Shown here: positions 17,651 to 18,688 of the stretch, piece after piece
Layout of the letters: each line of letters starts with the position of its first letter
Numbering within the stretch: position 1 is the stretch's first letter
Origin: Eubacteriales bacterium
GTDB taxonomy: Bacteria > Bacillota > Clostridia > Christensenellales > CALWSW01
Direction: 5' to 3'
Assembly (NCBI GenBank): GCA_031553675.1
Contig: JAVBLF010000016.1
Location: forward strand, 11,324 to 75,323
DNA length: 64,000 bases
Program-made: the position numbers and the translations under genes
Notes under the pieces: generated by a model
Database searches by the model: none
Told to the model about the DNA's origin: nothing
The model's input: only the letters and a program-made list of their open reading frames with translations

Positions 17651-18688
17651 ATGGCAGAAAGTGTGCGCTTGACGCAGATGGCCAAAAGCGCCGGGTGAGC
17701 GGCCAAAATAGGACCGGGCGTCCTATCGGAACTTTTGGCGGGCATGCCGCGCGTCGCGGACGATCGCTTGATCGTCGGCTTCGACACGTCGGACGATGCC
17801 TGCGTCTACAAAGTACGGGACGATTTGGCCGTCGTGCAGACGGTTGACTTCTTCCCGCCCGTCGTCGATGATCCCTACCTCTTCGGCCAAATCGCGGCGG
17901 CAAACGCCCTGAGCGATGTCTACGCCATGGGGGGCGCGCCTTCGATTGCGATGAACTTGTTTTGCTTTCCGGCCTGTCTCGATGCGTCGATCCCCAAAGC
18001 CATCCTCGCGGGTGGGGCGGACAAGGTGGCGGAAGCGGGCGCCGTGATCGCGGGCGGACACTCGATCGACGACGAGACGGTCAAATACGGCCTCTGCGTG
18101 ACAGGTTTTTTGCATCCTGACGACGTGATCACGAACGGTGCCGCCCAAGAGGGGGACGTTCTCGTTTTGACGAAACCGCTGGGGACCGGTCTTTTGACGA
18201 CGGCGATCAAGGCGGGTCTTTTGGGCGTGGAGGAAGCCGATGCTGTCGGGCGCTTGATGGCGACGCTCAACCGAGGCGCGCGCGACGCCATGGTCGCGAT
18301 CGGCGCGAACGCCTGTACCGACGTGACCGGTTTCGGTTTGCTGGGGCATGCGGGCGAAATGGCCGACGCGAGCGGGCTGACGGTCGCGATCGATCTCGCG
18401 GCACTGCCCCTTTTGCCGCGTGCGAAGGACATGGCGCTCGAAGGCATCGTGCCGGGGGGAACCTACCGCAATTTCGATTACCTCAAAGCGAGGATCGACG
18501 CTGCGCCGCACGTCGCGCAGTGGCAGATCGACCTCGCCTGCGATCCGCAGACGGCGGGCGGCCTATTGATCGCGCTGCCGGAAAAGAGGGCAGGGGAGCT
18601 GCTTCGCCGCCTGGAAGGACAGACGCCGTGCGCGGCCGTCGTCGGACAGCTTCTCGCGCGGAAAGACGCGGCGATCCAGCTGCGTTGA
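17651..18688 (+). CDS. selD: Selenide, water dikinase (selenophosphate synthetase) with an in-frame UGA selenocysteine codon at 17696..17698
   Basis: The ATG at 17651 follows GGGAGGGG and is in frame with ORF 17735..18688. The N-terminus MAESVRLTQMAKSAG-U-AAKIGPGVL aligns with the SelD active-site loop (E. coli IRLTQ...[10 protein letters not shown]). Confidence 0.85.
17702..17739 (+). promoter_or_regulatory. SECIS-like bipartite hairpin just 3' of the selD UGA
   Basis: Lower stem gccaaa / tttggc. Upper stem ataggac / gtcctat with apical loop cgggc. It begins 4-10 nt after the UGA. Confidence 0.65.

Follow-up and report, generated by a model that had tools for sequence, protein, structure and literature searches.

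A Very Probable Selenocysteine-Containing SelD in an Uncultured Christensenellales-Related Bacterium, Truncated in Its Annotation

The selD gene in a 64-kb window (the whole stretch of DNA that was analyzed) from a Christensenellales-related bacterium very probably encodes a Sec-type selenophosphate synthetase (selenide, water dikinase) in which an in-frame UGA is decoded as selenocysteine (Sec). The initial annotation had proposed that selD encodes a selenoprotein and that its in-frame UGA is followed by a SECIS-like hairpin, and this proposal is supported by homology, by the TGA codons of related genes, and by the constraints to which the hairpin conforms. The features discussed here are collected in table 1.

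Results

The selD Reading Frame and Its Truncated Annotation

A frame of 345 codons including Sec16 opens at ATG 17651–17653 and ends at position 18688 (stop codon 18686–18688), and TGA 17696–17698 at codon 16 is its sole break. The translation is MAESVRLTQMAKSAG-TGA(17696–17698)-AAKIGPGVLSELLAG, and the sequence after this TGA reads AAKIGPGVLSELLAGMPRVADD.... The mechanical ORF list starts selD at TTG 17735 (317 aa), and the sole public selD protein (P0001), encoded on an 87.7-kb contig found in NCBI and Logan, starts at ATG 17744 and comprises 314 residues; with the UGA read as selenocysteine, it is the first 31 residues of selD that the ORF callers removed. Database SelD homologs of 306–330 aa are common, and many of them start just past the UGA position and thus have evidently been cut alike by gene callers. 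ATG 17651 is the most likely start of translation; initiation from it is expected to give the peptide MAESVRLTQMAK, a product not expected from starts at 17735 or 17744. As the initial annotation had stated, this ATG is preceded by GGGAGGGG and the frame is broken by the UGA alone, both of which are seen in the sequence, and the TTG start of the ORF list leaves out the catalytic loop, as is evident from the read-through frame and from the family alignment.

Table 1. Coordinates of Features in the Window and of tRNA-Sec Genes at Related Loci
Feature	Position	Strand	Basis or remark
arcC/arcB/arcA, divergent arginine deiminase set	4265–7500	−	
AraC-type regulator	7795–9048		
ord	9279–10346	+	
ortB	10600–12069	+	
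Segment with no NCBIfam match	12203–12565		
oraE	12562–14781	+	
GlmL-like Or-4	14871–16238	+	
orr	16267–17463	+	
Hairpin after orr	17520–17546		Read from sequence; unlisted by consensus scan
Possible extended −10 element TGgTATAAT, monocistronic selD transcript	17572–17580	+	Read from sequence; conjectural
Shine–Dalgarno-like GGGAGGGG	17636–17643	+	Read from sequence; 7-nt spacer to ATG 17651
Full-length selD CDS	17651–18688	+	Translation and profile/structure matches
In-frame UGA, residue 16, catalytic Cys/Sec site of glycine-rich loop	17696–17698	+	Alignment and relatives
Putative lower stem GCCAAA/UUUGGC	17702–17707/17734–17739, within 17702–17739	+	Part of MFE fold
Candidate SECIS core, 7-bp stem AUAGGAC/GUCCUAU, loop CGGGC	17708–17726	+	Fold, recoding, codon usage
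Terminator-like perfect palindrome AAAAAAGCGCC-GATC-GGCGCTTTTTT	18695–18720	+	Read from sequence; 7 nt past selD stop
folC	22489–23754		THF riboswitch–folT pair a few kb downstream
THF (tetrahydrofolate) riboswitch aptamer RF01831	24896–25001	+	66.4 bits, gathering score 36
folT, folate-family ECF transporter S component (TIGR04518)	25131–25718	+	Directly downstream of THF riboswitch
Methylaspartate ammonia-lyase	51824–53074	−	
Glutamate mutase E	53173–54624	−	
Probably glmL and glmS	54650–56400	−	
Fe-S fumarate-hydratase-type protein	56969–57898	−	
ftcD	57858–58754	−	
hutU	59209–61239		ORF N-terminus ~98 residues longer than model match
hutI	61249–62472		
tRNA-Sec, locus L010	4137–4233	−	Near Sec-type selD
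tRNA-Sec, locus L043	1657–1753	+	Near Sec-type selD
tRNA-Sec, locus L066	1686–1782	+	Near Sec-type selD

SelD Identity and the Catalytic Site

The read-through protein is unambiguously a SelD and is predicted to synthesize selenophosphate. Its residues 6–313 match positions 1–310 of the 311 in TIGR00476 with 387.7 bits (cutoff 125), and its residues 2–342 match positions 3–342 of the 347 in NF002098 with 338.6 bits (cutoff 299); because both models are aligned from their very beginning, the 31 missing residues belong to the SelD family. The Pfam models PF00586 (81 bits) and PF02769 (70.4 bits) account for both AIR-synthase-related domains, N- and C-terminal. Among structures, SelD from E. coli (3u0o) was matched with an e value of 5.9e-71 in an alignment covering residues 3 to 316, and SelD from Aquifex aeolicus (2yye) with an e value of 8.6e-71.

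SelD activity requires both a catalytic Cys or Sec and a Lys. The N-terminal loop of the window protein reads ...VRLTQMAKSAG[U]AAKIGPG..., with SSGCAAKVGPG in Aquifex 2yye, and its segment ESVRLTQMAKSAG[U]AAKIGPGVL was aligned with the loop of E. coli 3u0o. Thus, SAG-U16-AA-K19 aligns with GAG-C17-GC-K20 (3u0o) and with SSG-C-AA-K (2yye), so that the UGA falls on E. coli Cys17 and Lys19 on Lys20. The initial annotation had assigned the UGA to the active-site Cys/Sec position of SelD, and the alignment with E. coli Cys17 and the Aquifex Cys, together with the match of the read-through protein to Sec- and Cys-type SelD on both sides of the UGA, agrees with this assignment.

The window protein and the Cys-type SelD of E. 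coli (3u0o) are alike in fold and domains, and the catalytic Lys and Asp residues are conserved; however, E. coli SelD has Cys17 (TGC) where the window gene has a UGA, needs no SECIS element, and carries the motif G-C-G-C-K instead of G-U-A-A-K. The Sec-type SelD of Aquifex aeolicus likewise belongs to the TIGR00476 family and likewise has the N-terminal motif G-U-A-A-K-[IV]-G-P-G. We take the Aquifex enzyme to be naturally a selenoprotein that was crystallized with Cys at the Sec position (PDB 2yye/2zod).

The UGA Codon among Relatives

To compare relatives, we used one genome per GTDB species and located the homologous codon in each of at least 80 loci with 46–58% identity. Among the 80 relatives listed, the codon homologous to 17696–17698 is TGA in 55 and TGC or TGT in 25, and all six of the closest loci among the matches listed, which come from Oscillospiraceae, uncultured Clostridia, Oscillibacter, Desulfovirgula, and Mediterraneibacter, have TGA. 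The position of the UGA in the window gene is therefore the same as in these 55 Sec-type relatives, and a TGA recurring in frame at one homologous codon in 55 of the 80 relatives listed is far beyond what would be expected by chance. The peptide encoded 5' of the codon (xRLTxMxxxxG) is conserved in frame among the 80 relatives listed. At 55–61% identity to database relatives, and at most 61% to any of them, the window SelD is a divergent new member of the family.

A reassigned genetic code (code 4 or 25) was also considered and ruled out; TGA is the ordinary terminator of 8 of the 20 homology-supported genes in the window, and the codon is therefore not reassigned genome-wide.

A Candidate SECIS Hairpin Downstream of the UGA

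An upper stem (17708–17714 paired with 17720–17726) closes the apical loop CGGGC (17715–17719) with a UGA–loop distance of 16 nt, and the minimum free energy (MFE) of this upper hairpin in ViennaRNA is −8.0 kcal/mol. We compared it with the bSECISearch model of Zhang and Gladyshev (2005), which, in the form outlined in PMC13188914, calls for a loop of 3–9 nt, an upper stem of 4–16 bp, a G among the first two loop bases, a UGA–loop distance of 16–37 nt, and an MFE of at most −7.5 kcal/mol. With its 5-nt loop, 7-bp stem, G at loop position 2, 16-nt distance, and −8.0 kcal/mol, the upper hairpin lies within all four bSECIS constraints as outlined there. The initial annotation had pointed to the region 17690–17745 and judged the spacing suitable for a bacterial SECIS element, which is what we find, with the distance of 16 nt at the lower limit of the published range in that outline. 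A spacing of ~16 nt is typical of the SelD family, and in Sec-containing bacterial SelD genes a hairpin likewise lies directly 3' of the UGA, with the loop ~16 nt after it. The CGGGC loop differs from the consensus in lacking the pattern of first/fifth loop base pairing that the outline qualifies with "mostly," and the hairpin is without a bulged U of the E. coli fdhF kind.

We then compared the native upper hairpin with 5,000 synonymous versions of AAKIGPGVLSELLAGM generated with the codon usage of the window. It is stabler than 97.8% of these recodings (top 2.2%); for the whole region the same comparison gave p = 0.38. The codons that form the stem are rare in 20 window genes: ATA accounts for 1.7% of Ile codons, GGA for 8.6% of Gly codons, and CTA for 1.1% of Leu codons. 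Among K-x-G-P relatives, the segment from +10 to +36 folds with −6.8 kcal/mol in Sec-type genes versus −3.9 kcal/mol in Cys-type genes (Mann–Whitney p = 0.0018). Taken with the recoding comparison and the rare codons, this difference in stability indicates that the upper hairpin is under selection beyond coding constraint.

In a register-free count, which scored any hairpin of at least 4 bp with its loop within +18 to +27 after the UGA or Cys codon, a hairpin was present at this position in 54 of the 56 Sec-type versus 17 of the 25 Cys-type genes among the matches listed (Fisher p ~0.001). Gly-Pro-Gly codons (GGN CCN GGN) are inherently self-complementary, so that the protein sequence by itself already supplies some of the hairpin; some 4-bp hairpin at the site is what those 17 Cys-type genes have. 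The register-free count was used because the stem register moves by 1–2 nt between clades. This shift explains why RNAalifold found no consensus structure in a gapless codon alignment of 54 Sec-type sequences and why the exact pairs of the window are only slightly enriched across the family (63.4% paired vs. 60.0% shuffled).

Raw folding energy is unimpressive as evidence in this 60% GC context. Against dinucleotide shuffles, the 26-nt upper hairpin is marginal (z = −1.42), and the folding energy of the 61-nt context is indistinguishable from that of the shuffles (z = −0.01). Rfam models at gathering score gave no match around the UGA, the THF riboswitch elsewhere being their sole match in the window, and a permissive Rfam search of 17600–17800 returned chance-level matches alone (e values of 3 or more). 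To our knowledge, the brevity and variability of bacterial SECIS elements put them out of reach of a general covariance model.

A second hairpin was observed at +28 to +48 in 32 of the 56 Sec-type genes among the matches listed and is absent from the window selD. It is stronger (6–9 bp), and its loop, GUU or GUC, lies ~34 nt past the UGA and agrees more closely with the classical G-U apical-loop rule than the loop of the first hairpin does; its carriers include L006, L015, L035, L037, L043, L044, L048, and L053, with Lachnospiraceae, Collinsella, and Bacillaceae represented. We also observed a hairpin of 5–8 bp at the SECIS position in two Cys-type genes, L058 from a Geobacteraceae metagenome-assembled genome (MAG), where it is UUCUC-CCG-GAGAA, and L077 from a Cloacimonadales MAG. 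Such hairpins are what a Sec-to-Cys conversion, as described in PMC1794560, would be expected to leave behind.

The Lower Stem

The initial annotation had described a bipartite hairpin in which a lower stem is set below the upper one. The MFE fold of 17702–17739 (−12.8 kcal/mol in ViennaRNA) consists of both stems and the loop CGGGC exactly as described there, with a 7-nt 3' internal loop (17727–17733) between the stems. Whereas comparison backs the upper stem-loop, a 7-bp stem plus an extra lower stem recurs in a single Sec-type relative among the matches listed (L012, Anaerovoracaceae), whose differences from the window element fall in the unpaired internal loop, and the bipartite element is not significant against synonymous recodings (p = 0.11, top 11%). 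Against dinucleotide shuffles the 38-nt element is marginal (z = −1.99, 8/200), and 60% of cells are paired in the lower stem across the family. An AU/GC covariation of alignment columns 18 and 45 was rejected as evidence for the lower stem because these are two wobble positions that co-vary with genomic GC content. It is possible, though not established, that the lower stem is real.

Discussion

Proposed Sec Decoding

On the reading that we favor, a ribosome would start at ATG 17651 and meet the UGA at codon 16, where the stem-loop core with its CGGGC loop 16 nt past the UGA would act as the SECIS element. Selenocysteine would be placed in the glycine-rich N-terminal loop SAG-U-AAK-IGPG, in which Sec16 would stand in for E. 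coli Cys17 beside the catalytic Lys. The enzyme so produced would have 345 residues and would synthesize selenophosphate, from which Sec-tRNA synthesis draws its selenium. SelD would thus depend on its own product.

We infer that SelB binds the hairpin, that Sec is inserted at UGA 17696–17698, and that selA, selB, and selC lie elsewhere in the genome; profile and tRNA searches of the 64-kb window found no selA, selB, or selC/tRNA-Sec, and the window contains no second selenoprotein gene. A scan of the window for same-frame ORF pairs split by a single TGA returned adjacent ordinary genes only and was discarded as a source of further selenoprotein candidates. A tRNA-Sec gene (anticodon tca) lies within 3 kb of a Sec-type selD in 3 of the 55 related loci listed; because such proximity is this infrequent, its absence beside the window selD is uninformative either way.

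Other Readings of the UGA

It is very improbable that translation proceeds only from a start after the UGA (TTG 17735 or ATG 17744) to give an N-terminally truncated SelD. Such a start is the choice of the ORF callers and of the public 314-aa record, but its product would be without the glycine-rich loop and without the catalytic Sec/Cys and Lys residues that correspond to Cys17 and Lys20 of the E. coli enzyme. Moreover, the 45 nt 5' of the UGA encode the in-frame peptide that is conserved across the 80 relatives listed, and a strong Shine–Dalgarno sequence precedes 17651, with none evident before 17735 or 17744. We attach equally little weight to the idea that a former Cys codon now reads TGA through a nonsense mutation or an assembly error, which would make selD a pseudogene or the base call wrong. 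A single base separates TGC or TGT from TGA, Cys codons are found in 25 of the 80 relatives listed, and a metagenome-assembled genome is the probable source of the sequence; yet TGA is the majority state among the relatives listed, the six closest included, the remainder of selD is intact with all invariant family residues present, and a recent accident would not yield a hairpin built of rare codons and stabler than its recodings. A shade less improbable, though still most unlikely, is read-through of the UGA without selenocysteine, for example with near-cognate insertion of Trp or Cys, with the hairpin as a generic read-through stimulator. A stem-loop-aided, Sec-independent case of this kind has been discussed for insect UGA-containing SPS1 genes (PMC4561486), and the Sec machinery is predicted for the genome rather than found in the 64-kb window. 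Against this stand the catalytic site, where the 80 relatives listed have Cys or Sec only, the fit of the hairpin to the SelB-type bSECIS model, as far as it is outlined in the source cited above, in loop size, G position, and spacing, and the wide distribution of Sec-type SelD in Clostridia that possess selA and selB (PMC1794560).

Two further readings arise from position alone, and we regard them jointly as very doubtful. The lower stem overlaps TTG 17735 and lies just 5' of ATG 17744 and might couple Sec decoding to internal starts: at low selenium or SelB, termination at the UGA might leave the structure in control of the synthesis of a SelD-like protein that is N-truncated and serves another role. 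Or else the place of selD, directly downstream of the ornithine-degradation operon, might point to a branch of ornithine or proline fermentation that depends on selenium in this Christensenellales-related lineage.

Genomic Surroundings

Upstream of selD on the same strand are genes of the oxidative ornithine pathway (ord, ortB, oraE, GlmL-like Or-4, and orr), and downstream are pgsA, valS, folC, the THF riboswitch with folT, and ftsA/ftsZ. The gene looks monocistronic. The possible extended −10 element was not flagged by a consensus promoter scan because it has no −35 match, and the palindrome past the stop codon is unlisted by the scan presumably because its A and T runs pair with each other, so that no T tail is left free. 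Compared with Sec-type SelD systems, the window selD stands alone between the ornithine-degradation operon and pgsA-valS, outside any sel cluster. By ValS, the nearest named relatives are Christensenellales with 65–69% identity, and the three closest ValS relatives (L082–L084) have no selD near valS. Two of them (L083 and L084) keep pgsA-valS-folC, and all three are without selD or the ornithine operon upstream, indicating that the adjacency of selD and the ornithine operon is lineage-specific or recent.

The region 4265–17463 holds a complete block for fermentation of arginine through ornithine to acetyl-CoA and alanine, and the region 51824–62472 holds genes for histidine degradation and for a methylaspartate pathway of glutamate fermentation. 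From these arginine, ornithine, glutamate, and histidine gene sets, the organism is an amino-acid fermenter. The initial annotation had suggested Stickland-type fermentation; the wealth of arginine, ornithine, glutamate, and histidine fermentation genes accords with that suggestion, whereas genes for the glycine and proline reductases are absent from the window, as are formate dehydrogenase and tRNA genes.

Significance

Sec-containing SelD is already textbook knowledge, and the window gene leaves the understanding of SelD and of Sec decoding unchanged. FdhA and SelD have the widest distribution among bacterial selenoproteins (PMC1794560), SelD ranks second in distribution among prokaryotic selenoprotein families (PMC13188914, PMC1794560), and it is a selenoprotein in many organisms (PMC12013277), with Clostridium difficile, C. 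perfringens, Moorella thermoacetica, and Syntrophomonas wolfei among those listed (PMC1794560). bSECIS elements in Sec-containing SelD genes have been recovered by RNAz (PMC4561486).

For the annotation, Sec decoding turns a public 314-residue fragment without the catalytic loop into a 345-residue selenoprotein. For the organism, an uncultured, Christensenellales-related fermenter of amino acids, it points to likely selenocysteine use, and further UGA-interrupted genes are therefore worth seeking in its genome.
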